A DNA stretch of 63,971 nucleotides, counting the filler, from an uncultured Methanosarcinales archaeon (GTDB lineage: Archaea > Nanobdellota > Nanobdellia > Woesearchaeales > UBA12501), in the NCBI GenBank assembly GCA_964397315.1. It is 7 parts of 4 records of this genome, joined end to end, with 100 filler letters (N's around TTAATTAATTAA, not from the genome) between each part and the next. Parts side by side here need not be neighbours in the genome. Positions count along the whole stretch, not along the records: positions 18,065 to 27,053 come from CAYNHV010000001.1; 6 more parts are not named here. One strand, 5' to 3'. Within the stretch, counting starts at the first letter, position 1; each line of letters starts with the position of its first letter. A program made the position numbers and the translations under genes. Positions 8,981 through 57,930 of the stretch are shown here, one piece after another. Under the pieces are notes generated by a model. That model was not told where the DNA came from and searched no databases. It saw nothing but the letters and a program-made list of their open reading frames with translations.

Positions 8981-10507
8981 TCAAATGTTTTTGCCCCTTA
9001 TCCTGTCAAACAGAAGGGTCCTTATTATATACTTTACCTCGCTTATCCTTACTGCCCTGAAGAGTATGACAAGTGCTGAATATGCAAGAAGGCCTGCTGC
9101 CAGCACAAGAGGGGCTTCTATGTACCACCTGTTTATCAAAAGAGCCTCTTTAACGAAGTAAAGGACAGCAGTAAAGATTATGCCTGCTATTATGCCTTTC
9201 ACCCAGCCAAGATAGGGCAGCCTTATCCTGTGCTTGTTTATCTCTACAGAGGACATGACAAGCACAAAGAGGTAGCATAGCATTGTGGTGAGTGAAGCCC
9301 CTACAGCGCCGTAAAGGGGTATCAGCAGGAAGTTCATTACAAGGTTTATGGAAGCTGCAATGAGCATGAACCTTGATACAATCCCTGGCTTTTCAAGCGC
9401 GTAAAAGAAGGAATTGTTTATCAGCGTAATGGTGAAGAAAAGATTGGCTATTGCGAGTATGGCCAGCTGGAGGCTGCCTGCCTCGTACGAGCTGCCGAAC
9501 AGCACCCTGAGCACAAGAGGGGAATAAAAGACCATTATCAGGGCAAGGGGTATCACCAGGACAAAGAAGTATTTCTGCACTATCTCATACATCCTCACTG
9601 CATCAGGCATTTTCTTTTTTGCTATCAAAGAGGCTGCCATGGGCGTCAGCACAAAGGCGAATGCCTGAGGGATTATCCTCATCGCCTCTGCTGTGGGGAC
9701 TGCTGTCTGGTAAATGCCCACTTCATGCAGTGTCCTAAAGAAGGAAAGCATCACAGTGTCTGTGTATGTGATTACCCTGCCTCCCACGAGTATGAGCAAC
9801 ACAGAGAAACCATAAGTGAGGGTCCTTTTGAAGAGCTTTCTGCTCCAAGCAGATTTAACACTTGTGAAATCCGGGAACAGTCTTCTCAGGAATATTATGG
9901 TGGAGCCTGCAAAAACAAGGAAAAATGAGATTATGTAGGAGAGTATTGCAGCGGTAACGCTGCTTGTCTTCATAAAGAGAAGAAGGGCGAATATCAGTAT
10001 GAGCGCGTTCTTTATGAAGTTTGACAGGGTGAAGTAGTGGGATCTCTCAAAGCCTATGAAAAGGAACTTGTAGAACCTTTCCATATTGTGGAGTATGAGA
10101 AGCACGGCAAAGAGTATTATGAGCATTGACGCTCCGCTCCTGTGGAAGTAGGCCTTTGAGAGGAAGCCTGAGAACATAACCATCAGTACAGCTATCAGAA
10201 GGGAGAGGCAAGTCTGGAAGACCAGGAGCATTCCTGTGAGGTTCTTTATGTCAGATTTCCTTTTTTTTGCCCTGAACTCTGCTATGAACTTTTGCATGGA
10301 CGAGGAAGTGCCCAGGTCAGCGAAAATCACAATCAGGCTTATCAAGGCTATTCCTGCATAGAAAAGCCCGTAATCATCCGCTCCCAGCTTTCTTGCGAAC
10401 AGTATCCTTATCAGGTAGCCCAGAAGAGATGCCAGCATTGCAAAAAAGAAGACAATCACAGCCTGATTCACTGCTTTGCGGGCGTAGCTCATTTTACTGC
10501 TTTCCAT
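8981..10507 (-). CDS. Wzx-type oligosaccharide flippase
   Basis: Many hydrophobic segments; ARKLG.DDYG, TDTVML, VGIY, LIPLYGAVGA. Confidence 0.92.
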   Translation of the reverse strand: MESSKMSYARKAVNQAVIVFFFAMLASLLGYLIRILFARKLGADDYGLFYAGIALISLIVIFADLGTSSSMQKFIAEFRAKKRKSDIKNLTGMLLVFQTCLSLLIAVLMVMFSGFLSKAYFHRSGASMLIILFAVLLILHNMERFYKFLFIGFERSHYFTLSNFIKNALILIFALLLFMKTSSVTAAILSYIISFFLVFAGSTIIFLRRLFPDFTSVKSAWSRKLFKRTLTYGFSVLLILVGGRVITYTDTVMLSFFRTLHEVGIYQTAVPTAEAMRIIPQAFAFVLTPMAASLIAKKKMPDAVRMYEIVQKYFFVLVIPLALIMVFYSPLVLRVLFGSSYEAGSLQLAILAIANLFFTITLINNSFFYALEKPGIVSRFMLIAASINLVMNFLLIPLYGAVGASLTTMLCYLFVLVMSSVEINKHRIRLPYLGWVKGIIAGIIFTAVLYFVKEALLINRWYIEAPLVLAAGLLAYSALVILFRAVRISEVKYIIRTLLFDRIRGKNI

Positions 10508-10564
10508 GAAAGAGACTATATAAAGTTTTTGCAGGAAAAAAATGGGATTGTGGGGGAGATAATG

Positions 10565-11030
10565 AGTTTATGATTATTATTCCTGATACTTCCCAGGGGA
10601 TTGATGAGCTTATAACTCCTGGTACTTCCCAGAGAGGATAATGGGTTTGCGATTATTATTCCTAGCACTTCACTCCCTTGGGAGGCTGATATTTTAGTTT
10701 TTACAGCTCCAGATTCCACCCACCCTTTCTGCAGAACCATCCCTCAGGTTTACACATTCCAAAACAGCACAATTCCCCGCTTCTCTCACCAATAAGCCCA
10801 CCCAATGATATGCTTAAAGTGCTCTGTGGAATTGGTGCGATTAGCATATTGAAGGGGGAGGAGGGATCTATCCATCTGTAACTGCGACTGGGGTGGAGGA
10901 GAACTCAGGAGAAATTCCCCTTTTTACAATGAGCAGTATCTTTAACTCATAAACAGGGCGGCGGCAAACTCTGTAGGAATAGGGATTTAATCACCTATTA
11001 GATCCTCTAAACAGGGCGCCTGCCGCCGAT
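10565..11030 (+). ncRNA. Copy 2 of dispersed structured-RNA-like element
   Basis: Core AATAAGCCCACCCAATGATATGCTTAAAGTGCTCTGTGGAATTGGTGCG from 10791; stem TATTCCTA (10657-10664)/TAGGAATA (10974-10981); boundaries approximate. Confidence 0.7.
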
Positions 11031-11050: not shown

Positions 11051-11512
11051 TCAGGAGAGCAGGCTGACGAGCTGGGGGTCAGCCATAAAGCCCTCCTTTT
11101 TTATTTCCTCAAGCACAAAGTACTGCTCAGGAGACCTCACCTTGTACTTGTCCAGCCCCTCAACAAACTCATGAACCTCCTTGATGTTCCTGAACAATGC
11201 CTCTATCATGAAATCATAGCCGTTGTTTATCCTGTATACTGAATTGACAAGAGGCTCCTTGAGAAGGTATTCCCTGAATGCCTCCCTCTGGTCCTTTGGG
11301 ACTTTGAGCGCTATCTGCACCCTGACATCATAGCCGAGCTTTGAGAAATCCAGCAGGGCAGTGTGCTTCTGTATGAGGTCCTTCTCATACCTCTTTATCC
11401 TGTCAAATATTGTTGAGACAGGCATTCCTGTCTTTTTGCTCATGCTCGTGAGGTTCATCCTCGCGTTCTTCCTTAGGTGGGACAGTAGCACAAGTTCTTT
11501 TTTTTGTAGCAT
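11051..11512 (-). CDS. Lrp/AsnC family transcriptional regulator
   Basis: LRKNAR..LT.MSKKTG.PVSTI HTH, LDFSKLG; GGAGGTG RBS before ATG 11512. Confidence 0.92.
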   Translation of the reverse strand: MLQKKELVLLSHLRKNARMNLTSMSKKTGMPVSTIFDRIKRYEKDLIQKHTALLDFSKLGYDVRVQIALKVPKDQREAFREYLLKEPLVNSVYRINNGYDFMIEALFRNIKEVHEFVEGLDKYKVRSPEQYFVLEEIKKEGFMADPQLVSLLS

Positions 11513-11618
11513 TTGGAACACCTCCATTTTGTTCGGAATAACAACATTATAGGCAAAAGATTTATATATAACTAACCTCTATAAGTTATATAACTAATAT
11601 AACAGGTTGATATATAAG

Positions 11619-12366
11619 ATGAGAAGAAAGCTCGTGAAACAGGGCAGGAACGCCCTCACAATAACCCTCCCAGCCACCTGGACAAAGAAATTCGGCCTAA
11701 AGGCAGGGGATGAGGTTGAGATTGAGGAGGAAGGAAGGAGTGTGATAATTGGGGGGCAAGGGGAGGGCAGGCCAAGAAAAGCTTCAATAGACTCCACAAA
11801 AATAAGCGAAAGGGTTCTCAGATGGTTTCTGTCAGGCCTTCACAAAGGAGGTTGGGATGAGATAGAAATATTATTTGATAAAAAGGAGACTCTTGATGTA
11901 ATAGATGACCTGATAAAGAATCTCCTGATGGGATTCGCTGTTGTAGAGCAGACAGGCAGCAGATGCCTGCTGAAAAAGGTTTCTATGGACATGGACACAG
12001 AGTTTGACTCCATACTTAGGAGAGCCTTTCTCGTAACAATAGCTATGGGAGACAGCTGTATAAGCATGATAAGGGAAAACAAGCTGAAAGAGATGAAAGA
12101 TTTGATAAGTTTGGAAAAAACCAACAACCAGCTGACCAACTTCTGCGAGAGAATACTGAACAAGAAAGGATATAAGGACAATGACAAAACATGCTTTGTC
12201 TATGTGATAGCATGGAATCTGGAGAAAGTCTGCGATTATTACAAGTATGTATGCGAGTACCTTTCAGACAATCCTGATGCAGAAATCAAAGAGGACGTGC
12301 TTAAGATGATGGAGGAGGCAAACAACCAGATAAGAAGCTACAATTCCTTGTTTTCCAAATTCAAAG
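11619..12366 (+). CDS. phoU: AbrB-PhoU phosphate uptake regulator (3' truncated by contig end)
   Basis: RKLVKQG..ALTITLP..W...GLKAGDEV AbrB domain followed by PhoU helices (LEKVCD). Confidence 0.85.
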
Positions 12367-12466
12367 NNNNNNNNNNNNNNNNNNNNNNNNNNNNNNNNNN
12401 NNNNNNNNNNTTAATTAATTAANNNNNNNNNNNNNNNNNNNNNNNNNNNNNNNNNNNNNNNNNNNN
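12367..12466. other. Artificial contig linker
   Basis: N run, TTAATTAATTAA, N run. Confidence 0.99.
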
Positions 12467-12467
12467 T

Positions 12468-12665
12468 TTAGAGATTATATTTCAAAAAATTGGATTGAAA
12501 TTCTCAAAGGAATGGATTGGAAAAAAAGCAAGCAGCTATGAACTGCACAAGAAACCAGCCCATAAGGATTACAGGGATTATTATGACAAAACAACAAGAG
12601 AGCTTATCAGAAAAAGATACAAGGAGTATATAAGATGGTCTGGTTATAAATTCACCCGCTCCTGA
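12468..12665 (+). CDS. C-terminal fragment of sulfotransferase-family protein (5' truncated)
   Basis: Own translation ...HKDYRDYYDKTTRELIRKRYKEYIRWSGYKF resembles the Sulfotransfer_2 C-terminus. Confidence 0.65.
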   Translation, partial: LEIIFQKIGLKFSKEWIGKKASSYELHKKPAHKDYRDYYDKTTRELIRKRYKEYIRWSGYKFTRS

Positions 12666-13362
12666 CCTTCTCCTTCAGCTTCTCCACTATCAGCTCCCAG
12701 TCTGGCCTGTTGCTTGCGGGTATGTAGTGGTTTGCCGCGTCTGCTATCCGCCTTATCTCATTCCTGTCCATGTCCAGGGCATCTGCCAGCTTCTTTGGTA
12801 TTTCAGAGCTGTCATCAAGGAGGTAGTAGAGGTCATAGATGTCCTTTCCCTCCCTTCTTGTGAGGATGCAGTCTGTCTTGTGCCTTACAAACACGCTCTT
12901 CTCGTAAACTTCCAGCAGTGACGCGTCACCAGGCACGAACCCGTAGTTCACCACCTGCCTTGAGTGCTTTTCACTGATCTTTTTTGCTGTGAATTCCAGC
13001 CTTATCCTGTCCTTGTGGCCAAGGGGGTTGGTGTAGAAAAGGTCGTAGCGGATTGTTGATTTCATCAGCCTGGGCTTTCCCACTGAGTCAAAGATGTCAA
13101 TGCTCTTGACAATCCTGTCCGTGGTCTTTATCACTTCCCTCGCGCTGCCAGCAAAGTCAATGTCAAAGTCAAGGTCCTCTGAGAAGCGCATCTTTCCTGC
13201 TTTTTTGAGGTGTATCCTGTTTATTGCTGTGCCTCCCTTGAACACTATCCCTTCAGCGCCCTGCAGCGCTGCCAGTGTTTGGGTTATCATGCTGTCCTTG
13301 GCTACAAAGTTAAGCGATAGCTCATGCTTTGCAGCCTGCTGCCTCAGCTCCCTCAGGTTCAT
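12652..13362 (-). CDS. AbiEii/AbiGii nucleotidyltransferase toxin (type IV TA)
   Basis: FKGGTA, RFSEDLDF, KDIYDL; ATGA overlap with upstream antitoxin. Confidence 0.9.
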   Translation of the reverse strand: MNLRELRQQAAKHELSLNFVAKDSMITQTLAALQGAEGIVFKGGTAINRIHLKKAGKMRFSEDLDFDIDFAGSAREVIKTTDRIVKSIDIFDSVGKPRLMKSTIRYDLFYTNPLGHKDRIRLEFTAKKISEKHSRQVVNYGFVPGDASLLEVYEKSVFVRHKTDCILTRREGKDIYDLYYLLDDSSEIPKKLADALDMDRNEIRRIADAANHYIPASNRPDWELIVEKLKEKVRSG

Positions 13363-14123
13363 TGGTACCACCATGATAGTATTCTTTTCTCTCCAATGTT
13401 GTCCTGCACCTTCCACCTGCTGTCATAGGAGCTTTTCCTGCTGTTATGCTCCAGCTTTACAGGATGCTTAACATGCTGCAACAGCTCCCTGAAAACATAT
13501 GATGGTATTCTGCATCCTGTCTCTTTTTTCAGCATCTCAAGGACATAGCCTGCTTTCTGGGCTGCAGCATCAGGAGCGCCTGAAAAGGATTCCAGGAACT
13601 CCCCCCACTTAATCCTGCCTGCGTCGTGTATGGCTTTTGTAAGGATACTGTAACCCACATGCCTTATCCTGATGAAGCAGTCAAAGAAGGTCTTCTCAAG
13701 TGTTGAGACCATGATGCCATCCCTCTCCACAATACCATTATAGGGCCTTATAGGCATGTATTTCAGGGTGTAATCCCCCAGCCTGACCTTCATGTACCTG
13801 TCTCTTGTGAGTATGATTATTGTGAAATCCTCGTATTCTGTCAGCCCATGAATCTTCAGGGCTGAGTGCAGGCCTATGTAACCCTTGTGCAGCCTCAGGG
13901 CCAGCTTGTAGAAGCTGCCTGTCCTCTCAGGATTGTAGTAAACACCTTTCTTTGCCCTTTTAATGTATCCTTTACTGCAGAGGCTGTTCAGCAGCTTGAC
14001 CTTCCTGTTCTCACTTAGCTCAGGGAATACCTGGCCTGCCAGCTCTGTGCCTATTATTCCCTTGTTATTCAGGACATTCCAGAGTTTCTGCTCATCAGCT
14101 GTAAGATAGTTATTTTTACCCAT
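13359..14123 (-). CDS. AbiEi-like antitoxin / transcriptional regulator
   Basis: KGYIKRAKKGVY, YIGLHSALKIHGLT, STLEKTFFD. Confidence 0.85.
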   Translation of the reverse strand: MGKNNYLTADEQKLWNVLNNKGIIGTELAGQVFPELSENRKVKLLNSLCSKGYIKRAKKGVYYNPERTGSFYKLALRLHKGYIGLHSALKIHGLTEYEDFTIIILTRDRYMKVRLGDYTLKYMPIRPYNGIVERDGIMVSTLEKTFFDCFIRIRHVGYSILTKAIHDAGRIKWGEFLESFSGAPDAAAQKAGYVLEMLKKETGCRIPSYVFRELLQHVKHPVKLEHNSRKSSYDSRWKVQDNIGEKRILSWWYQ

Positions 14124-16663: not shown

Positions 16664-16724
16664 GGAATTATTGGCAATAAAATGCCAAAAAAGCAGGAAT
16701 TATTGGCAACAGAATACCAAAAAA
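16664..16724. promoter_or_regulatory. Tandem 32-bp-period palindromic operator-like repeat
   Basis: GGAATTATTGGCAA.A.AAT.CCAAAAAA twice, abutting the TTTATATA box of the AAA gene. Confidence 0.55.
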
Positions 16725-17964: not shown

Positions 17965-18064
17965 NNNNNNNNNNNNNNNNNNNNNNNNNNNNNNNNNNNN
18001 NNNNNNNNTTAATTAATTAANNNNNNNNNNNNNNNNNNNNNNNNNNNNNNNNNNNNNNNNNNNN
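17965..18064. other. Artificial contig linker
   Basis: N run, TTAATTAATTAA, N run. Confidence 0.99.
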
Positions 18065-18545
18065 AGGTATAACAAGGTCATGATCATTATTCCAGGTGAT
18101 TTCTGTAAGAGGGTATGCTTATTATTCCTGCTACTTCCCGCTAATCTGGTGAGATCATATCTAAGTTGGTAAATCCTGGTTACTCCCACCCTTAATACAC
18201 AACCGTCCGGCAAGTTAGTCTCTTCTGCAACAGTACAACTTTCCACTCCTGTCTCCAATAAGCCCTCCCAATCATATGCTTAAAGCGCTCTCTGTGGCTT
18301 GGTGCGCTAAGCATAATAAAGGGGTCTAATAATCCCAGACGAGCTTGCGAGTCGGGATTATTTTTAGGCGGGCAAAGCGATTGTAACTCTAAACAGGGTG
18401 GTGGTAACACCAGGAAGATTCATTATCTTTATACAACAACCGGGAGGAGTTAATAATATTAGATTGGAATGCTCTGTGTGCTGGGAACATCTGGAGGAAC
18501 TCCCATTTGTACAATGAATAACAGCATAATGAGTGTGCCATGTCT
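18065..18545 (+). ncRNA. Copy 3 of dispersed structured-RNA-like element
   Basis: Core AATAAGCCC at 18257; hairpin ATGCTT-AA-AGCGC...GCGCT-AAGCAT; stem 18174-18192 with 18395-18415; 5' end may be cut by contig edge. Confidence 0.7.
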
Positions 18546-21793: not shown

Positions 21794-21887
21794 CGCCCCA
21801 GGGCAGACTCGAACTGCCGACCTCGCGGTTTCTCTCAGCTGAAAACAGGATAACAGCCGCGCGCTCCGCCTACTAAGCTACTGGGGC
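21794..21887 (-). tRNA. tRNA-Asn(GUU) with canonical 37/38 intron
   Basis: GCCCCAG acceptor, CGCGG-CT-GTT-A[~21 nt]A-CCGCG, TTCGAGT T-loop. Confidence 0.9.
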
Positions 21888-26116: not shown

Positions 26117-26204
26117 CGGGCCCGCAGGGATTTGAACCCCGGACCTTTCGGTCTCTCTTCAGAGTTAAGAGCCGAATGCTCTAGCCAGACTGAGCTACGA
26201 GCCC
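26117..26204 (-). tRNA. tRNA-Lys(CUU) with canonical intron
   Basis: TTCGG-CT-CTT-A[13 nt]A-CCGAA, TTCAAAT. Confidence 0.9.
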
Positions 26205-26577: not shown

Positions 26578-26835
26578 ACGCCGCGGCCCGGATACAGGAA
26601 CGAGCCTTTTGATTAAAGCCTCGGGAAAACTCAGGCAGCTCCTAGTGCTTGCGTACCGGAGCTCCCTTAGGATATATTTACAGAAACCGTTTTCAACATT
26701 GTTGATTCGGAGGATTCCGAGCGAAGCGAGGATATCCTCCTTAATGGCCGGATCAAGGAAGAAGACCCTTGTCGGGAAAACTCAGGCAGCTCCTAGTGCT
26801 TGCGTACCGGAGCTCCCTAACGCCGCGGCCCGGAT
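26578..26835. mobile_element. Small element bounded by a duplicated tRNA-Ser 3' end, with an internal 47-bp direct repeat
   Basis: ACGCCGCGGCCCGGAT at 26578 and 26820; identical 47-mers at 26621-26667 and 26772-26818. Confidence 0.7.
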
Positions 26836-26934
26836 TCGAACCGGGATATCCCGAAGGAAACCGGCTATTTTTGCTGAAAATCTATGATTTTCACCACTCA
26901 AGGCCGGCGCAGTACCAGATTGTGCCACCGCGGC
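26821..26934 (-). tRNA. tRNA-Ser(UGA) with canonical intron
   Basis: CCGGC-CT-TGA-G[~30 nt]A-GCCGG, long variable arm, TTCGAAT. Confidence 0.88.
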
Positions 26935-27053: not shown

Positions 27054-27153
27054 NNNNNNNNNNNNNNNNNNNNNNNNNNNNNNNNNNNNNNNNNNNNTTA
27101 ATTAATTAANNNNNNNNNNNNNNNNNNNNNNNNNNNNNNNNNNNNNNNNNNNN
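27054..27153. other. Artificial contig linker
   Basis: N run, TTAATTAATTAA, N run. Confidence 0.99.
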
Positions 27154-27272: not shown

Positions 27273-27377
27273 GGGCCAGTAGCTCAACCTGGATGCAATA
27301 GCAGGGGATTAGAGCGCCGCATTGGCTATTAACAACCAAAGATGCGGAGGCTTCGGGTTCAAATCCCGACTGGTCCA
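27273..27377 (+). tRNA. tRNA-Ala(GGC) with two short introns (D-loop and 37/38)
   Basis: G3:U70 acceptor GGGCCAG/CTGGTCC; BHB helices CCTG/CAGG and TTGG/CCAA. Confidence 0.85.
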
Positions 27378-34039: not shown

Positions 34040-35116
34040 CTAATACTCCCGGTTTATTAGGAAGTCAGAGATTCCAATCAGAAAGTCTTTTCCCTCTTCT
34101 CTCAGCTCAGCTTTTTCCAATGACCTCCTTGCTCTGGTTATAAGGTCTTCTGCAAGCTTTCTGGAATAATCCAGGGAGCCTGTCTCAGTTATTATCTTCC
34201 TGACTTTTTCTATCTCATCTTTTGAAATGCCCTTTTTTCCAAGAGCATCAAGCAGGATGTTTTTCTCCTCTTCGCTGCACTTCTCAAATGCCTTGACAAT
34301 CAGCAGTGTTATCTTGCCCTCCTTCAGGTCAGAGCCCACAGGCTTGCCCAGCTTCTTCTCATCACCAAACATGCCCAGAATGTCATCCTGTATCTGAAAC
34401 GCCTGGCCAAGAGGAGCTGCAAATTCGTTCAGGGCCTTAAGGTCCGATTCCCCTGCTCCTGCAAGCACAGCCCCCATGTGAAGCGGACCCTCCACAGTGT
34501 ATGATGCTGTCTTGTACTTATTTACCTTCATGACATCCTCTTCCGTGACTTTGTGAACAGGCCTGCTGTATATCATGGTCTCAAGCAGCCAGCCGTATTC
34601 TGTCTTAAGGGCAGCCTCATGATATTTTCTGAGAGAGGAATTTACCCTGGCTGCATCAAATCCTGAGAGCAGGAGCGCCTCATTTGCCAGAGAGTTCTGC
34701 ATGTCAGCGGCAACAATAGCTATGCTCTCTCCGAATCTTTTTGGAGATATGCTCTTAAGATGACCGTATCTGTTCTCATAAACCTTGTGAAGCGTAGGGC
34801 CGCCCCTCCTGAGCTCGTCCTGGTCAAGAACATCATCATGTATCAGAAAAAAACCTTCCATAAGCTCAACAGCAAGCGAGGAGCGAATGAGATCCTGCTC
34901 GTCATCAGGTTCTGCAAAGCATTTGTAGCCATGCATCATCAGTGCAGGCCTTATCCTCTTGCCTCCCCTGAGGTTGAATTCCTTCAGGTTCTTCATCAGC
35001 TCAGCAGCAGAGCTGTCAACCTTTTCCGCCTCTTTTATCTTCCTGTCAAAGAATTCAGACAGCGCAGAGTCTATCCTCTGCTTGTAGTCCCTCAGCTTTT
35101 CCATTGCGCCTGCCAT
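34040..35116 (-). CDS. idsA: Polyprenyl (geranylgeranyl) diphosphate synthase
   Basis: GGKRIRP, LIHDDVLD.D..RRG, KT, FQIQDD, GSDLKEGK. Confidence 0.93.
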   Translation of the reverse strand: MAGAMEKLRDYKQRIDSALSEFFDRKIKEAEKVDSSAAELMKNLKEFNLRGGKRIRPALMMHGYKCFAEPDDEQDLIRSSLAVELMEGFFLIHDDVLDQDELRRGGPTLHKVYENRYGHLKSISPKRFGESIAIVAADMQNSLANEALLLSGFDAARVNSSLRKYHEAALKTEYGWLLETMIYSRPVHKVTEEDVMKVNKYKTASYTVEGPLHMGAVLAGAGESDLKALNEFAAPLGQAFQIQDDILGMFGDEKKLGKPVGSDLKEGKITLLIVKAFEKCSEEEKNILLDALGKKGISKDEIEKVRKIITETGSLDYSRKLAEDLITRARRSLEKAELREEGKDFLIGISDFLINREY

Positions 35117-35214
35117 GCACGTCTCTTGCCTGCTTCTGTTTAAATTTTTTCCGATTTTTTGGGATGCGGAATTGCAATAAAATTATAAATGAAAACAGAA
35201 TCCTCTCCCTTATA

Positions 35215-35655
35215 ATGGCTATGTGCAGAAACAGGGCGGGATGCACCTTTAAGGGAGTTGCGCTTCTGGTTCTTGTAATTGACATCATAACCAAGATGCT
35301 CGCCAGGAGGCATCAGCCCTCAGGATCCGGAGTCATCAGCATAGACTACACAACCAACACAGGCGCGGCATTCGGCATGATGAAAGAGGGGAATGTGCTG
35401 CTGATTATGATATCCATTGCTGTCCTGGCTGCCATAATCTATATGATGTTCTTCAGCAGGAAAAGGCCTTCAATGGGAACTGCTGTTTTCCTGGGCCTGC
35501 TGGCCGGAGGCGCGCTGGGAAACCTCCTTGACAGGATTTTCTTTGGGTTTGTGACTGACTTCATCAGCTTCAGCTTCTGGCCTGCCTTTAACGTGGCTGA
35601 CATTGCCATAACAACCGGTGTTATAGGCCTGGTTGTGATAATAATGAAAGAATAG
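35215..35655 (+). CDS. lspA: Signal peptidase II
   Basis: NTGAAFG, GNLLDR, VTDF, FNVAD. Confidence 0.9.
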   Translation: MAMCRNRAGCTFKGVALLVLVIDIITKMLARRHQPSGSGVISIDYTTNTGAAFGMMKEGNVLLIMISIAVLAAIIYMMFFSRKRPSMGTAVFLGLLAGGALGNLLDRIFFGFVTDFISFSFWPAFNVADIAITTGVIGLVVIIMKE

Positions 35656-36056: not shown

Positions 36057-38405
36057 TTAAACACAGCCCCTTATACTTTCTTCTAAACTTCTCCTGCTTC
36101 CAGTATGATAAAAATCACTGAGAAACTCTTGTATGACATTTTTCTTAGAAGGAAGTGAATGCTTTCTTTTTTTCTTAGATCTTCTTTTCTTTTCTCCAAC
36201 CATAGTATCCATCTTCCATGCCAAAGAATTCTTTTTTAAAGGTTCTACACCTGGTTGTGATATCTTCTTCAATCCAGCAAGATAAACTCTGAATTTAGAG
36301 TCTCTAGCTTTATAGAAACCAGAAAATGGTAATACATCAAAACCAAGGCTTTCTAAACCTTTATGGAATTTTTTAAGGTTATTAGATGATATCACAGTAT
36401 AAGGCAAGGTAATCAGGGAATAGCCTCCTGTATCCAAAACTCTATTCATCTCCCTTAATATTGCTTCTCTTTCATTTATCCCACCATCTTTTTGTGCAGA
36501 ATCTAATCTAGTCATATGTAATGCAAGAGAACAAACAGCTAAATCAAATGAATTGTCTGCAAAAGGTAATTGATGCATTGCTCCCTGAACAGATTCATTT
36601 CCAGGTACCACTTTCCCTTCATCCTCAAGTATTTGACCTGCCTTTAGCATATAGTTGCTCAAGTCTAAGTTTGTCACTGGTTCATTTATTACTCTTGATA
36701 AGGAAAACGGTCCAGAGGCAACATCCAGCTTTCTTTCCAGACCATGACTCTCTTGCAAGATATTAACTGCTTGCCCATAAAGACTTGCAGTGTTTCCTGC
36801 ATAATAACCCTCCCAATAAGCAGCATATAATTTTGCCACATACTCCGCTTCCTGAGGATATTTACTATAGTGGGCCATTATTTTGTTAAATCCTTTCCCT
36901 CTCAAAAGGCCCATATGCAAATCCATGCCCCTGATTGGGCTTCTAACTAAAGGAGCTATATGTTTTGATTTCCTTATTTTGCCATTCTTAATTTCATCCA
37001 AGTCTTCCTTTGTCAGCAATAATGGTTTATCCAGAAGATACTCAATAATCCTTTCTTTATCCTGGAGCAATCGTTCCATGCCTTCCGTGACTACTGGAAT
37101 CATGTCTAGATGAGGCATCACTGTGTAAGCATTCACAGACTCTTTATCTATTTCTCCTATTCTCTGCGATCTCCTGTTTCTTTGTTTAAAAGCTGCTGAA
37201 TCATAAGGAAGAGTCAAATGGAAGATATCCGTAGCAGCAGTTAAATCCACACCCTCATCCATGACAGTTGTTGCAATTAAAACCTTGCATTCTGGGTCTT
37301 CCTGGAATCTTCTTCTGGTCTCTTCTCTCTTGCTTAAACCGCCATTATTACTGTTTGAAGTAACCTCTTTATCAATAACTACAGCACCATAATCAGCATA
37401 CCTTCTCTTTAGTCTATTTGTCACACCTTTCCTGAGGTTTGAGAACATAAGTACTTTTCCGCCATTAGAAGTGATTTTATCTATTTTGTCATCTAAAGCA
37501 TCATAGGTGCAGGAATCCATTCTTCCAGATTTAGAAGCCAGTCTCGATTTAAGAAAATCAGGATTAACTAGATTGGGGTCTATGGATGCTTTTATTAACT
37601 GAATTAATTTTGTTGATGGTTTGATATCATCATTGTTGTGGATTGCCATGTAAACATCAGCATGGTCTCCTGTTAACTCTGTTTCAAGATGACTTTGATT
37701 AAGCTTTGGAAATTTATCAGGCAGATATTCCTCAGCCTTTCTTCTTATCATCCTATCCCCTATAAGAGCCCTTCTTACAAATTCGGGATCGCTCCTAAAG
37801 AGGGTGTAAAAACCACTTAAAGCAGCTCTGGTATTGTCTGGATCCAAAGGAAAGCTTTCATTATCCAATAAACTCAACAACATATAGATATCAGGAATAG
37901 TGTTTGGAATTGGTGTTCCAGATAATATGGAGAGGTAATCCACTGAATCAAAGAGTTCCTTCACGCCTCTGCTTCTCGTAGAAGCGGGATTTTTAGCATT
38001 ATGAGCTTCATCAAGGATTCCATACTGAAAATCTAATTTTCTTAAATTATCAATTTTATGTTCATTGCGGCCATAGCGAGACAGAGTGGGGTAACCTACA
38101 ATAATAAAATTATAATCTTCTGCATCTTTTATATCTTGGTCGTAGGAAGTGCATTGTATCTTCTTAATCTTGTTCTTGCCTCCATCATCATACCATATTC
38201 CAATTTCATCTTCCCAATGGTCTGCTACAGAGGCCGGGCAGACAATCAACGTTCTGCCAGTGTATCCTTCTTGCCTGTGGACAGCTTTTGCTCCAATAAT
38301 AGATTCAGCGCACTTGCCCAAGCCCATATCATCAGCTATCAAGATTCTCTTTTTATCTACAAGATCTTTTACAGCTTCCATTTGATAAGCTCTTAACTCA
38401 GGCAT
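36057..38405 (-). CDS. SNF2-type helicase fused to C-terminal class I SAM methyltransferase
   Basis: ADDMGLGK, DEAH, LSGTP, EGVDL, QR..R..RIG; LDVASGP, LPFADNSFD, LALH, RVL..GG. Confidence 0.85.
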   Translation of the reverse strand: MPELRAYQMEAVKDLVDKKRILIADDMGLGKCAESIIGAKAVHRQEGYTGRTLIVCPASVADHWEDEIGIWYDDGGKNKIKKIQCTSYDQDIKDAEDYNFIIVGYPTLSRYGRNEHKIDNLRKLDFQYGILDEAHNAKNPASTRSRGVKELFDSVDYLSILSGTPIPNTIPDIYMLLSLLDNESFPLDPDNTRAALSGFYTLFRSDPEFVRRALIGDRMIRRKAEEYLPDKFPKLNQSHLETELTGDHADVYMAIHNNDDIKPSTKLIQLIKASIDPNLVNPDFLKSRLASKSGRMDSCTYDALDDKIDKITSNGGKVLMFSNLRKGVTNRLKRRYADYGAVVIDKEVTSNSNNGGLSKREETRRRFQEDPECKVLIATTVMDEGVDLTAATDIFHLTLPYDSAAFKQRNRRSQRIGEIDKESVNAYTVMPHLDMIPVVTEGMERLLQDKERIIEYLLDKPLLLTKEDLDEIKNGKIRKSKHIAPLVRSPIRGMDLHMGLLRGKGFNKIMAHYSKYPQEAEYVAKLYAAYWEGYYAGNTASLYGQAVNILQESHGLERKLDVASGPFSLSRVINEPVTNLDLSNYMLKAGQILEDEGKVVPGNESVQGAMHQLPFADNSFDLAVCSLALHMTRLDSAQKDGGINEREAILREMNRVLDTGGYSLITLPYTVISSNNLKKFHKGLESLGFDVLPFSGFYKARDSKFRVYLAGLKKISQPGVEPLKKNSLAWKMDTMVGEKKRRSKKKRKHSLPSKKNVIQEFLSDFYHTGSRRSLEESIRGCV

Positions 38406-39847
38406 TCCAACTCCCTCCCAAGCTCTAAAACATCCTTATAATGCTGAGACAAACCCTGATACAACTCACTCTTTCTACCTTCGTAACTATCAGCCAGTTT
38501 ATCAATATTCTTGATGGTGCCCTCAGGATCCTCATTAAACACGGGGCCATAGGTATACCTCAACAACCTGACAAGCCTGTCCTCCAAAGCAAGAGTAACA
38601 TTCCCTTCAGGTATGACATCTATTGCTTGTCCAATTAAGATAGGGATAATTCCATTACCTTCCAAGGTAAAATCTCCAAGATAAGCTCCAAGATTAGTAA
38701 GGCCGCTCCTTATTACTTTATAAACTTCATCAGTATTCTCTTCAAGAAACTTATGAATGTCCTTCTCATCCCCGAACTTATCTCTATAAATATCCATGAT
38801 TACCTTTTCCATGTCCATCCCTTGACCGTTCAAAGTAATGGCCGCTGCAGCAAGAGTTGCTGCTGCTTCATCATTCTTGAGAAAGTCAATGAATTGATGG
38901 TTGGAGGTTATTTGATCATAGCCCATTTTTTCTCTTACAGCAAGAAGACCATCATGATGAAGGTACATGGCATTGATTAAGCTATATTTCTTCATTTTAC
39001 GAAGTTCTGCTGTCTCTGGGAAATGGCCTAAAATTTTAATCAATCTATTAATTTCATTTTCAACATACCCCCAATCTTTGCCAAAGCCGTTTTTTTTCTT
39101 TAATTCTTTATAACCCATCCTTTTTCTTACCTCGTTTATCCCATCATGATAATTTCCTATAGCTCCAGCCAAACTTATGGGTAATTCTTCATATTTAGGA
39201 AAACGACCTAATTTTTTAATAAGATTTTTTATTTTACTTTCCACATTATTCCAATCTTTAAGGCTGCCTTTTTTTGCTATTAATGGTTCATAACGCATTC
39301 TTTCTCTAACTTCAAAATAGCTGCCGTGATATCTATAGATAGCATTAATAAGAGGGACTTCATTTTTTTGTAGATAACTAGAAGATGGAAAATGCCCAAT
39401 ATCTTTTGTTATTTTTTTCAATTCTCTTTCAACATTTTTAAATTTTTTAAAGCTATTTGATTGATTTTCACCTAGTCTTTTTCTAACCTTTTTAAGTCCA
39501 CCATGGTGGTTATATATTGCAGTTCTTAAATCGCGTCGACCTAAAGCATCAAAGTCTTTAAATTTAGGGTATCTCCCCAATGTTTCTTTTATATCACACA
39601 CCTCTTTTTTGATATATTCCCAGTCCTTGTTTTGTGTTTTTGTTGCTTTGTTTGGTTCTTCGTGACCCATATTTTTTATCACTCTGTTACATCCTCCATG
39701 ATATCTATTTATCGCATTATATAAGCTAGATGCCTTAAGATAGAGTAGCTCTTTCTTGTTTGGGAAGTGGCCTAACACTTCAATTATTTTATTCATTTCC
39801 CTTTCAACATTATCCCAAATTCGCCAATATCCCCTCGGCTTCCTCAT
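38393..39847 (-). CDS. Protein with five ~60-aa helical repeats plus unique C-terminal domain
   Basis: Repeat W..VE.E...I...LG.FP...EL......L..AI..YH.G...VR..MG. Confidence 0.8.
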   Translation of the reverse strand: MRKPRGYWRIWDNVEREMNKIIEVLGHFPNKKELLYLKASSLYNAINRYHGGCNRVIKNMGHEEPNKATKTQNKDWEYIKKEVCDIKETLGRYPKFKDFDALGRRDLRTAIYNHHGGLKKVRKRLGENQSNSFKKFKNVERELKKITKDIGHFPSSSYLQKNEVPLINAIYRYHGSYFEVRERMRYEPLIAKKGSLKDWNNVESKIKNLIKKLGRFPKYEELPISLAGAIGNYHDGINEVRKRMGYKELKKKNGFGKDWGYVENEINRLIKILGHFPETAELRKMKKYSLINAMYLHHDGLLAVREKMGYDQITSNHQFIDFLKNDEAAATLAAAAITLNGQGMDMEKVIMDIYRDKFGDEKDIHKFLEENTDEVYKVIRSGLTNLGAYLGDFTLEGNGIIPILIGQAIDVIPEGNVTLALEDRLVRLLRYTYGPVFNEDPEGTIKNIDKLADSYEGRKSELYQGLSQHYKDVLELGRELECLS

Positions 39848-42344: not shown

Positions 42345-42830
42345 TGGTGTTTAGACACGCCATGGGTGTTGTGCAGAGGGCGTGCAAATTAATAAAGCTG
42401 ATAAATGTTCTGGTGTTGCCAGTTCCCAGAGCATTATATAAAATTTCTAAGTCCTCCTGACACTGCCTCCACGCTGTTTATTAGTTCTAAGAATGATGCT
42501 CGTCTTAAAAGAGGGAATCCTCCTGATTTCTCCACCGCCCCAGTCGCAGTTACATCTGGATAAATCCCGCCCCCCGCCCCCTCACACATGCTTAGCGCAC
42601 CAACTCCACAGAGCGCTTTAAGCAAATCATTGGGTGGGCTTATTAGGGGCAGGAGAGTGTAGTTGTGCGGAGACAGAATCAGATAACCAGAGGGTGGTTC
42701 TGGAGTAAGGGAGGGAAGCATCAGGAGTTACTAACCTAAATCTCATCTCACCAGATTGGAGGGAATTACCAGGAGTTATAAGCATAAGCCAAAACTCACA
42801 AAAGGGATTGCCAGGATTTGCAGCAGTTTA
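42345..42830 (-). ncRNA. Copy 4 of dispersed structured-RNA-like element
   Basis: Minus strand reads AATAAGCCCACCCAATGATTTGCTTAAAGCGCTCTGTGGAGTTGGTGCGCTAAGCAT (core starts 42644); CTCCTGAT/ATCAGGAG and CTCCTGGTA/TGTCAGGAG stems; TTTATAA ~25 nt upstream. Confidence 0.7.
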
Positions 42831-42879
42831 AGGCTGAGTTTCCATAACATTTATAAAAAACAGGGATTTTTTCATTTCC

Positions 42880-47956: not shown

Positions 47957-48060
47957 AGAGAAAAGATTAGCTTCAAACCAGATGGAAGCTTAAATAATAT
48001 TTAAATACCCTCTCCCCTTACCATTAGAAAAGGCATTAAAAGAGGCAATTGAAGGTGATA

Positions 48061-48684
48061 ATGATGAGAAACATGATATTTTGCGCGATGATTGCTGCCC
48101 TGCTGCTGGCAGCAGGCTGCAGCAATGGAGAAGCCGATGATACAAGCAAAGGAGATATAAACAGTTTTGAGGAGTGTGTTGAGGCAGGAAACCCTGTGAT
48201 GGAGTCCTATCCGAGACAGTGCAGGGCAGACAGCAGGGTATTTGTTGAGGAAGTGAATGATACAGAAGGCCCCTCAGAGCATTACTGCACTGAAGAGGAG
48301 AAGGCAGCTGACTTCTGCACTATGCATTATGATCCTGTCTGCGGTGATAATGGGAAGATTTACAGCAACGGATGCGTGGCCTGCTCCAGCGGGGAGATAG
48401 AGAGCTACACTCCGGGAGAGTGCGGGGAGAGCGGGGAAATCAGAAATGAGAAATCCTTTCTTGATTATGAGGGGGCGGCAGCAATAGCTGCTGAAAGCGA
48501 GTGCACAGAGAAGGGGAGCTTGACAGAAAGCTATAATTACAACAATAACAGCAGGACGTGGTGGATAGACCTTGACATGAAGGAGGAGTTTGCAAAGGAA
48601 GGCTGCAATCCTGCCTGCGTTGTCCATGAAGAGACGCGGAACGCGACAATAAACTGGAGATGCACAGGCCTGGTGAGTGAATGA
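48061..48684 (+). CDS. Cys-rich lipoprotein with Kazal-like domain
   Basis: Lipobox LLAAGC; SFEEC..AGNPVMESYPRQC; CTMHYDPVCG...YSN.C.AC. Confidence 0.8.
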   Translation: MMRNMIFCAMIAALLLAAGCSNGEADDTSKGDINSFEECVEAGNPVMESYPRQCRADSRVFVEEVNDTEGPSEHYCTEEEKAADFCTMHYDPVCGDNGKIYSNGCVACSSGEIESYTPGECGESGEIRNEKSFLDYEGAAAIAAESECTEKGSLTESYNYNNNSRTWWIDLDMKEEFAKEGCNPACVVHEETRNATINWRCTGLVSE

Positions 48685-50319: not shown

Positions 50320-50419
50320 NNNNNNNNNNNNNNNNNNNNNNNNNNNNNNNNNNNNNNNNNNNNTTAATTAATTAANNNNNNNNNNNNNNNNNNNNNNNNN
50401 NNNNNNNNNNNNNNNNNNN
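50320..50419. other. Artificial contig linker
   Basis: N run, TTAATTAATTAA, N run. Confidence 0.99.
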
Positions 50420-51499: not shown

Positions 51500-51599
51500 N
51501 NNNNNNNNNNNNNNNNNNNNNNNNNNNNNNNNNNNNNNNNNNNTTAATTAATTAANNNNNNNNNNNNNNNNNNNNNNNNNNNNNNNNNNNNNNNNNNNN
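51500..51599. other. Artificial contig linker
   Basis: N run, TTAATTAATTAA, N run. Confidence 0.99.
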
Positions 51600-57830: not shown

Positions 57831-57930
57831 NNNNNNNNNNNNNNNNNNNNNNNNNNNNNNNNNNNNNNNNNNNNTTAATTAATTAANNNNNNNNNNNNNN
57901 NNNNNNNNNNNNNNNNNNNNNNNNNNNNNN
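57831..57930. other. Artificial contig linker
   Basis: N run, TTAATTAATTAA, N run. Confidence 0.99.

Follow-up and report, generated by a model that had tools for sequence, protein, structure and literature searches.

The window analyzed here, a stretch of 63,971 nt, contains four diverged copies (C1 to C4) of a non-coding repeat family ~300-480 nt in length, in which a central core is flanked by arms built from inverted units. A genuine inner inverted repeat closes the core in each of the three full copies, and C3 and C4 have a genuine second layer as well. An initial annotation of C3, the copy under study, had gone further and proposed that nested long-range stems with compensatory changes give the element a rod-like fold, a defined strand, and selection on RNA structure. 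That proposal is partly supported, and selection for a rod-shaped RNA is not shown by the present data. Our tentative explanation is that the family represents a lineage-specific, non-coding, interspersed mosaic repeat of a Woesearchaeota-like (DPANN) genome that is MITE-like without being canonical. The principal alternative, that the copies are paralogous genes for a structured non-coding RNA, transcribed from the AATAAGCCC strand (hereafter the element strand) and with their function in the core hairpin and unpaired motifs, is possible but doubtful. The two readings are not exclusive since a selfish repeat can be transcribed, and this element may well be.

Copies of the family and their anatomy

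The window consists of seven contigs joined by N44-TTAATTAATTAA-N44 linkers. These linkers put stop codons in all six frames, so any feature that crosses one is artificial. The first base after one of the spacers is the start of C3 (18065/18066); because C3 begins directly after the spacer, its left side is cut by the contig start. The abutment of C3 on a contig start and of C1 on the window start is in keeping with a mosaic repeat, as a family of this kind would break assemblies and seems to have done so at 18066. The host is archaeal and Woesearchaeota-like (DPANN); the window contains four tRNA genes that are probably intron-bearing, and its ORFs include a Hel308-type helicase, CDP-archaeol synthase, Nre, and RFC. 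The ThrRS has its named relatives in Woesearchaeota/Nanoarchaeota genomes, at identities of 81% (partial), 76%, and then <70%.

All four copies are intergenic (between ORFs), three on the plus strand and one on the minus strand, and their pairwise identity is 70-75% over 200-343 nt (Table 1). The density of four copies in 63,443 non-N bases corresponds to ~63 per Mb. This density, the intergenic position, and the occurrence on both strands argue for a mosaic repeat; such a density, combined with a variable number of modules, would be unusual for host RNA genes. The sequence AATAAGCCC occurs four times in the window compared with 0.65 expected, and a longer core pattern matched the same four places and no shuffle. 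No further copies were found in the window with an nhmmer profile of the four copies (next match, E = 0.0026) or with a covariance model of the core run with filters off (next match, 16.4 bits, E = 0.047, inside a gene). A core-like stretch beside C2 may, on a weak match, be a decayed copy; it overlaps the 3' end of an Lrp/AsnC-type ORF (11051-11527, minus strand).

Table 1. Positions of the repeat copies, the parts of C3, and other features in the window
Feature	Position	Strand	Remarks
C1	1-~300	+	Most diverged; left arm cut by window start; nhmmer E = 1e-67; covariance model 74.8 bits
C2	10556-11035	+	Four left-arm units; one right-arm module more than C1/C3
C3 (copy under study)	18066-18545	+	nhmmer E = 5e-123; left side cut by contig start
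C4	42399-42868	-	Between the starts of a UPF0182 gene and the ThrRS gene; nhmmer E = 3e-124
Possible second-core remnant (GATAAGCCTACCCA..ATGCT) beside C2	11023-11082	+	blastn E = 0.025; covariance model 11.7 bits, E = 0.8
C3 left-arm unit, third (outer) layer	18080-18111	+	Duplex with 18476-18511; z −1.91 (41/1000) on both strands
C3 left-arm unit, second layer	18114-18145	+	Duplex with 18434-18469; z −2.19 (27/1000), other strand −0.24
C3 inner left-arm unit	18166-18197	+	Contains 18174-18192; duplex −29.1 kcal/mol, 0/1000
Core start, AATAAGCCC	18257-18265	+	Invariant in 4/4 copies
Core hairpin	18276-18314	+	ATGCTTA-AA-GCGC / loop with conserved GTGG..TTGGTGC / GCGC-TAAGCAT
C3-specific insertion	18325-18368	+	Forms its own self-contained, near-perfect hairpin
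TGTAACT	18382-18388	+	Invariant in 4/4 copies; between core and right arm
C3 inner right-arm unit	18389-18424	+	Contains 18395-18415
C3 right-arm unit, second layer	18434-18469	+	
C3 right-arm unit, third layer	18476-18511	+	82% identity over 28 nt to tail of C2 inner right unit
Spacer before C3	17965-18064		N44-TTAATTAATTAA-N44, not biological
Linker spacers	12367-12466, 17965-18064, 27054-27153, 50320-50419, 51500-51599, 57831-57930		Non-biological sequence
tRNA genes, 88-114 nt (Rfam)	21794-21887, 26117-26204, 26821-26934, 27273-27377	-, -, -, +	

Each copy is organized around a core of ~75 nt that comprises AATAAGCCC, a hairpin, a G-run, and TGTAACT. Core identity is 85-93% among C2, C3, and C4, compared with ~50-80% for the arms. 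A core better conserved than the arms and ends is the opposite of what a canonical MITE displays and is as expected for an RNA gene; the conserved unpaired motifs (AATAAG, TGTAACT, and loop GTGG..TTGGTGC) also fit RNA. In the core hairpin (helix 7), 9 of 14 pairs are invariant. Against the RNA reading, C1 is without the family's core hairpin. C3 and C1 each carry a private insertion. The C3 insertion, whose self-contained hairpin fits RNA, lies inside the core's closing helix and supplies most of the negative z of the C3 core on both strands. The C1 insertion (10 nt, 112-121) forms a CCCATAG/CTATGGG hairpin beside its apparent template and looks like an inverted local copy.

The left arm contains two to four degenerate units of ~25 nt (..ATTCCTGnTACTTCCC..) in direct order, 56-62% pyrimidine, followed by a spacer before the core. 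Right-arm units (..GGGyGGnGG..CAGGA..) approximate the left units in reverse complement, stand in inverted order, and are 52-57% purine. The number of modules varies between copies, as expected for a mosaic repeat: the C2 left arm includes a direct duplication (35 nt at 83%, E = 4e-6), and C2 and C4, unlike C1 and C3, have an additional module of ~66 nt after TGTAACT. The inner right unit of C3 matches two right units of C4 about equally (66% and 68% identity, both E = 0.003), so that the correspondence is ambiguous. With unit numbers that vary in this way, neither orthology nor descent fixes which units pair. Tandem Repeats Finder called no arrays of arm units in C2, C3, or C4, and blastn found no inverted match between the arms at E below 0.05. 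The inner right unit is followed by a T-run of T5, T5, T3, and T4 in C1 to C4, respectively; the runs of C1, C2, and C4 (three of four copies) fit RNA.

Pairing between the arms

All of the strings quoted in the initial annotation were present at the places it gave or implied. In C3, these are the arms TCCTGGTTACTCCCACCCT (18174-18192) and AGGGTGGTGGTAACACCAGGA (18395-18415). In C4, read on the minus strand, they are an inner stem of CTCCTGAT (42720-42727) with ATCAGGAG (42520-42527), and an outer stem of CTCCTGGTA (42767-42775) and CCTCCA (42757-42762) with TGGAGG (42466-42471) and TGTCAGGAG (42454-42462). The C2 stems are CCACCC (10716-10725) with GGGTGG (10891-10896) and TATTCCTA (10657-10664) with TAGGAATA (10974-10981).

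We folded each left unit against its right unit (~32-36 nt) and scored the duplex against 1000 controls in which both units were mononucleotide-shuffled. Unit limits were set by eye on the repeat motif, a choice that may favor pairing, and the C1 pair was tested only with a truncated left end. On the element strand, the inner pair of C3 was matched or exceeded by 0/1000 shuffles, followed by the second layer of C4 (3/1000), the inner pairs of C2 (10/1000) and C4 (12/1000), and the second (27/1000) and third (41/1000) layers of C3. The remaining four of the ten arm pairs were at shuffle level: C1 inner (161/1000), C2 second (TATTCCTA/TAGGAATA; 361/1000), C2 third (373/1000), and C4 third (378/1000). 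The idea that the arms pair within every copy therefore held for the inner stems of C2, C3, and C4 and the second layer of C3 and C4, but not for these four pairs. By chance, a perfect complement between arms of 250 nt and 200 nt is expected 0.76 times for an 8-mer and 12 times for a 6-mer; neither the C2 stem TATTCCTA/TAGGAATA nor the 6-mers exceed chance.

That the inner stems beat shuffles on the element strand in all three full copies is consistent with RNA genes. The best stem, the inner pair of C3, is just as strong on one strand as on the other (−29.1 and −28.9 kcal/mol), as a DNA inverted repeat should be; this argues for a mosaic repeat and also suits a DNA module bound by protein.

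The arms of a given copy are not specially fitted to each other. Cognate arms had a mean of −19.9 kcal/mol compared with −18.5 kcal/mol for foreign arms of the same layer, and 42/216 within-layer permutations were as good (141/216 on the opposite strand). Shuffling arms across layers gave p = 0.003, which shows only that the inner units pair best. The interchangeability of arms between copies supports the mosaic repeat, in which the arms would be inverted copies of one low-complexity unit (C-runs versus G-runs, TCCTGR versus YCAGGA). With both arms built from one such unit, any left unit would pair fairly well with any right unit, and nested stems with occasional "compensated" positions would arise from this pairing without RNA selection. 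Nested stems and a single compensated pair are, for arms of this composition, no proof of selection on RNA structure.

Fold stability, strand, and covariation

A rod was recovered in the minimum-free-energy folds of C3 and C4 but not in that of C2, where the left arm pairs with itself. The 480 nt of C3 folded at −132.2 kcal/mol compared with −125.7 ± 6.7 kcal/mol for shuffles (z −0.97, 13/100), and the opposite strand behaved similarly (z −0.94, 18/100). We also paired whole arms with each other, using 100 dinucleotide shuffles of each arm as the control. The z values for C1 to C4 were +0.28, −0.60, −2.09 (4/100), and −1.55 (6/100) on the element strand and −1.38, −0.25, −0.56, and −1.27 on the opposite strand. 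Fisher-combined p values of 0.04 and 0.08 do not represent independent tests because the copies are homologous. The core alone gave z of −0.97, +0.29, −1.83, and −0.18 for C1 to C4 (other strand: −0.24, +1.07, −2.21, and −2.14), which argues against RNA genes. The core together with the inner stem, at −0.53, −2.65, −1.74, and −1.93 versus +0.79, −3.02, −0.82, and −1.02 on the other strand, is more favorable to them. Thus neither the whole element nor the core, with or without its inner stem, has more than a marginal excess of stability over dinucleotide shuffles. The initial annotation had named stems no better than shuffled controls as a refutation of its proposal; this outcome applies to the whole rod but not to the inner stems.

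The claim that the strand could be read from the outer C4 stem was examined in several ways. By direct reading, this stem does require two G·U pairs. As an argument for one strand, this proved weak. Folding with Watson-Crick pairs only and typing the symmetric mismatches yielded five of G·U type versus two of A·C type (p = 0.45), and nine cognate duplexes contained 22 G·U pairs on the element strand versus 14 on the other (p = 0.24). Restricting the count to the six stems that had beaten shuffles, a post hoc choice, gave 14 versus 4 (p = 0.03), a count that favors RNA genes. Paired z values for the ten arm pairs favored the element strand in six, the other strand in three, and neither in one (Wilcoxon p = 0.13); the six are a point against a mosaic repeat. 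RNAalifold with default settings also favored the element strand (−55.3 versus −46.2 kcal/mol; structure conservation index, 0.55 versus 0.47), as RNA genes would lead one to expect, but under the RIBOSUM model, the strands scored alike (−137.6 and −135.8). The data lean toward the AATAAGCCC strand, and a strand preference is not established.

The RNAalifold analysis used C2, C3, and C4, with the truncated C1 left out. The reported change between TCCTGA:TCAGGA and TCCTGG:CCAGGA is real (alignment columns 75/306) and appears as AU in two copies and GC in one. Selection on RNA structure did not emerge from the same alignment: the −55.3 kcal/mol is the sum of −59.2 for folding and +3.9 for covariation, a penalty. 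Of the 19 pairs in the inner long-range helix, 10 are unvarying and 7 are disrupted in one copy or more; the other two are a one-sided change and a compensated pair. In favor of RNA genes, 5/60 pairs changed on both sides compared with 2.0 expected (7/500 shuffles). On the RNAalifold structure, 88.8% of pairing cells were occupied by pairs compared with 85.1% in shuffles (0/500). At least some of these figures, the double changes among them, are inflated, because the three sequences counted had also served to predict the structure and because helix 5 aligns the private insertion of C3. A rod without thermodynamic or covariation excess is what a mosaic repeat would produce.

Origin of the family and its surroundings

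As a mosaic repeat, the family would be selfish DNA whose spread or persistence does not depend on terminal inverted repeats. The conserved core would be a site required in cis, unit number would change through duplication and loss, and the arms would be inherited inverted sub-repeats rather than helices maintained by compensatory evolution. Like MITEs, the repeat is short, non-coding, multi-copy, intergenic, lineage-specific, and foldable into a long imperfect hairpin. Unlike them, it has no terminal inverted repeat common to the copies, its center is its best conserved part, and neither a target duplication nor a transposase was found in the window. Shuffles matched the best terminal inverted repeats of C1 to C4 in 102/300, 141/300, 129/300, and 17/300 cases; the best terminal match of C4 (12/13 bases) is borderline, and the best end candidates of C2 and C4 are different sequences. 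Target-site duplications were not consistent, with a 3-bp (C2) and a 2-bp (C4) repeat beside unrelated candidate ends, and C1 and C3 cut on the left. A Pfam scan of 57 window ORFs detected no transposase, reverse transcriptase, or TnpB. These three observations speak against a canonical MITE and also weigh against the mosaic repeat, as does the fact that no empty site was seen; mobility is putative. PMC11602168 reports a Woesearchaea genome with 105 MITEs per Mb, one of the richest among archaea, which makes elements of this kind more probable a priori in the lineage.

Database searches were largely negative. At the gathering score, Rfam matched only four tRNAs in the whole window; at E up to 10, it had 0 matches to C3 and 2 irrelevant matches to C4 (E = 3.2 and 7.4). 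The core pattern occurred at four loci in GTDB species-representative genomes, all bacterial; we regard these as chance matches because they have nothing in common beyond the pattern. C4 had no match among plasmids and phages in the distant mode of blastn, and a limited literature search found no description of such an element. The lack of an Rfam match, an orphan ORF in C4, and the lack of a relative in GTDB species genomes by core pattern are consistent with a lineage-specific mosaic repeat, and the lack of an Rfam match even at E = 10 counts against RNA genes.

The bacterial mosaic repeats BOX, BIME/REP, and ERIC and the foldback elements of eukaryotes are modular, vary in sub-unit number, and have opposite arms that can pair. 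They are often co-transcribed with neighboring genes and are known from bacteria or eukaryotes. The present repeat resembles them in its apparent modularity, variable unit number, and pairable arms; it differs in its ~75-nt hairpin core between the arms, and no sequence relation was found. DPANN genomes are small, and ~60 copies per Mb would fill a visible share of the intergenic DNA. If the family is selfish DNA, it is of a non-canonical type, with no common end repeats and a conserved center, and its route of spreading would be of interest.

Were the copies RNA genes, the inner arm pair, and perhaps the second layer, would close the core into a long helix, and the T-run after the inner right unit would end the transcript. 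The complete copies, C2 and C4, adjoin gene starts at 10507 and 42880, and direct reading revealed TATA-like boxes just outside their left ends (10516-10525 and 42851-42862). These boxes cannot be assigned to the element because they are common to the divergently transcribed gene starts, and no promoter is common to the copies, which is a point against RNA genes. The likeness to rod-like or long-stem RNAs in Rfam lies in the core with conserved unpaired motifs and in the long-range helices of the predicted C3 and C4 folds; the difference is that no Rfam family matches and that stability and covariation are not significant here. We consider it unlikely that the copies form an undescribed family of structured RNAs of Woesearchaeota, with an invariant AAUAAG, GUGG..UUGGUGC, and UGUAACU core in a long helix of freely drifting sequence and a role either as a trans-acting RNA maintained in many copies or as the RNA component of a mobile element that is moved or guided through RNA. 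DPANN has very few known lineage-specific structured RNAs, and such a family would join them.

Two further readings are less probable than RNA genes. One is a protein-bound DNA module. The flanking units would then be inverted arrays of binding sites for a regulator, a recombinase, or a factor in replication or segregation, and the core would be the site of action. With units in direct order to the left of a conserved core and in inverted order to its right, the architecture recalls transposon ends and attP arms, which carry several binding sites, and both complete copies lie beside gene starts. We nevertheless regard this module as improbable: conservation of the units between copies is poor, contrary to expectation for sites of a single protein, no candidate recombinase is nearby, and four copies in 64 kb are too many for origins or dif-like sites.

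The other reading concerns only the compensated change, which a single mutational event in the DNA could explain: template switching or conversion between the inverted arms, for example, would copy one arm onto the other and keep pairing without selection. The inner helix has only one clean double change, and the perfect hairpin made by the C1 insertion beside its template and the near-perfect private hairpin of C3 resemble products of such events. PMC8794818 describes template switching that creates and maintains hairpins. We give this origin little credence here, because the arms are ~220 nt apart, which is far for a local template switch, and the history is not reconstructable from four copies.

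Several specific identities were also discarded. A 95-aa ORF lies over C4, and a protein search with it returned only itself among 11 candidates. The core has an open frame that shifts between copies through a 1-nt indel, and by direct reading, no frame is common to the copies. A K-turn at the base of the core hairpin would need a GA/GA arrangement that direct reading finds in C4, partly in C2, and not in C1 or C3. TGATGA, as in a box C/D RNA, is present only in C2, and the bulges of the inner stem misfit a bulge-helix-bulge processing site. The size and core motifs are wrong for an integron attC site, and for a replication origin, the copies are too many and the core is not AT-rich.

Several neighboring features of the window were noted. 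The four tRNA genes are probably intron-bearing, given their length; ARAGORN detected two of the four and misread the anticodons. Near the end of one contig, an ORF with a MazE/AbrB-like antitoxin domain (11607-12366, plus strand) runs into the contig end, and an AbiEii-type nucleotidyltransferase toxin ORF is located at 12652-13416 (minus strand). A fusion of an SNF2-type helicase with a SAM methyltransferase domain (36057-38405, minus strand) is followed by a protein with a homing-endonuclease-associated repeat (38393-39847, minus strand), and the two may be a restriction or defense-like pair. The window also encodes lipoprotein signal peptidase II (Peptidase_A8; 35104-35655, plus strand) and a protein with a Kazal-type inhibitor domain (48049-48684, plus strand), both seemingly uncommon in archaea. 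Finally, two adjacent direct repeats of 29 nt (GGAATTATTGGCAA.A.AAT.CCAAAAAA; 16664-16724), 90% identical and each with a small palindrome, sit near the start of an AAA_14/DUF4143 ATPase ORF.
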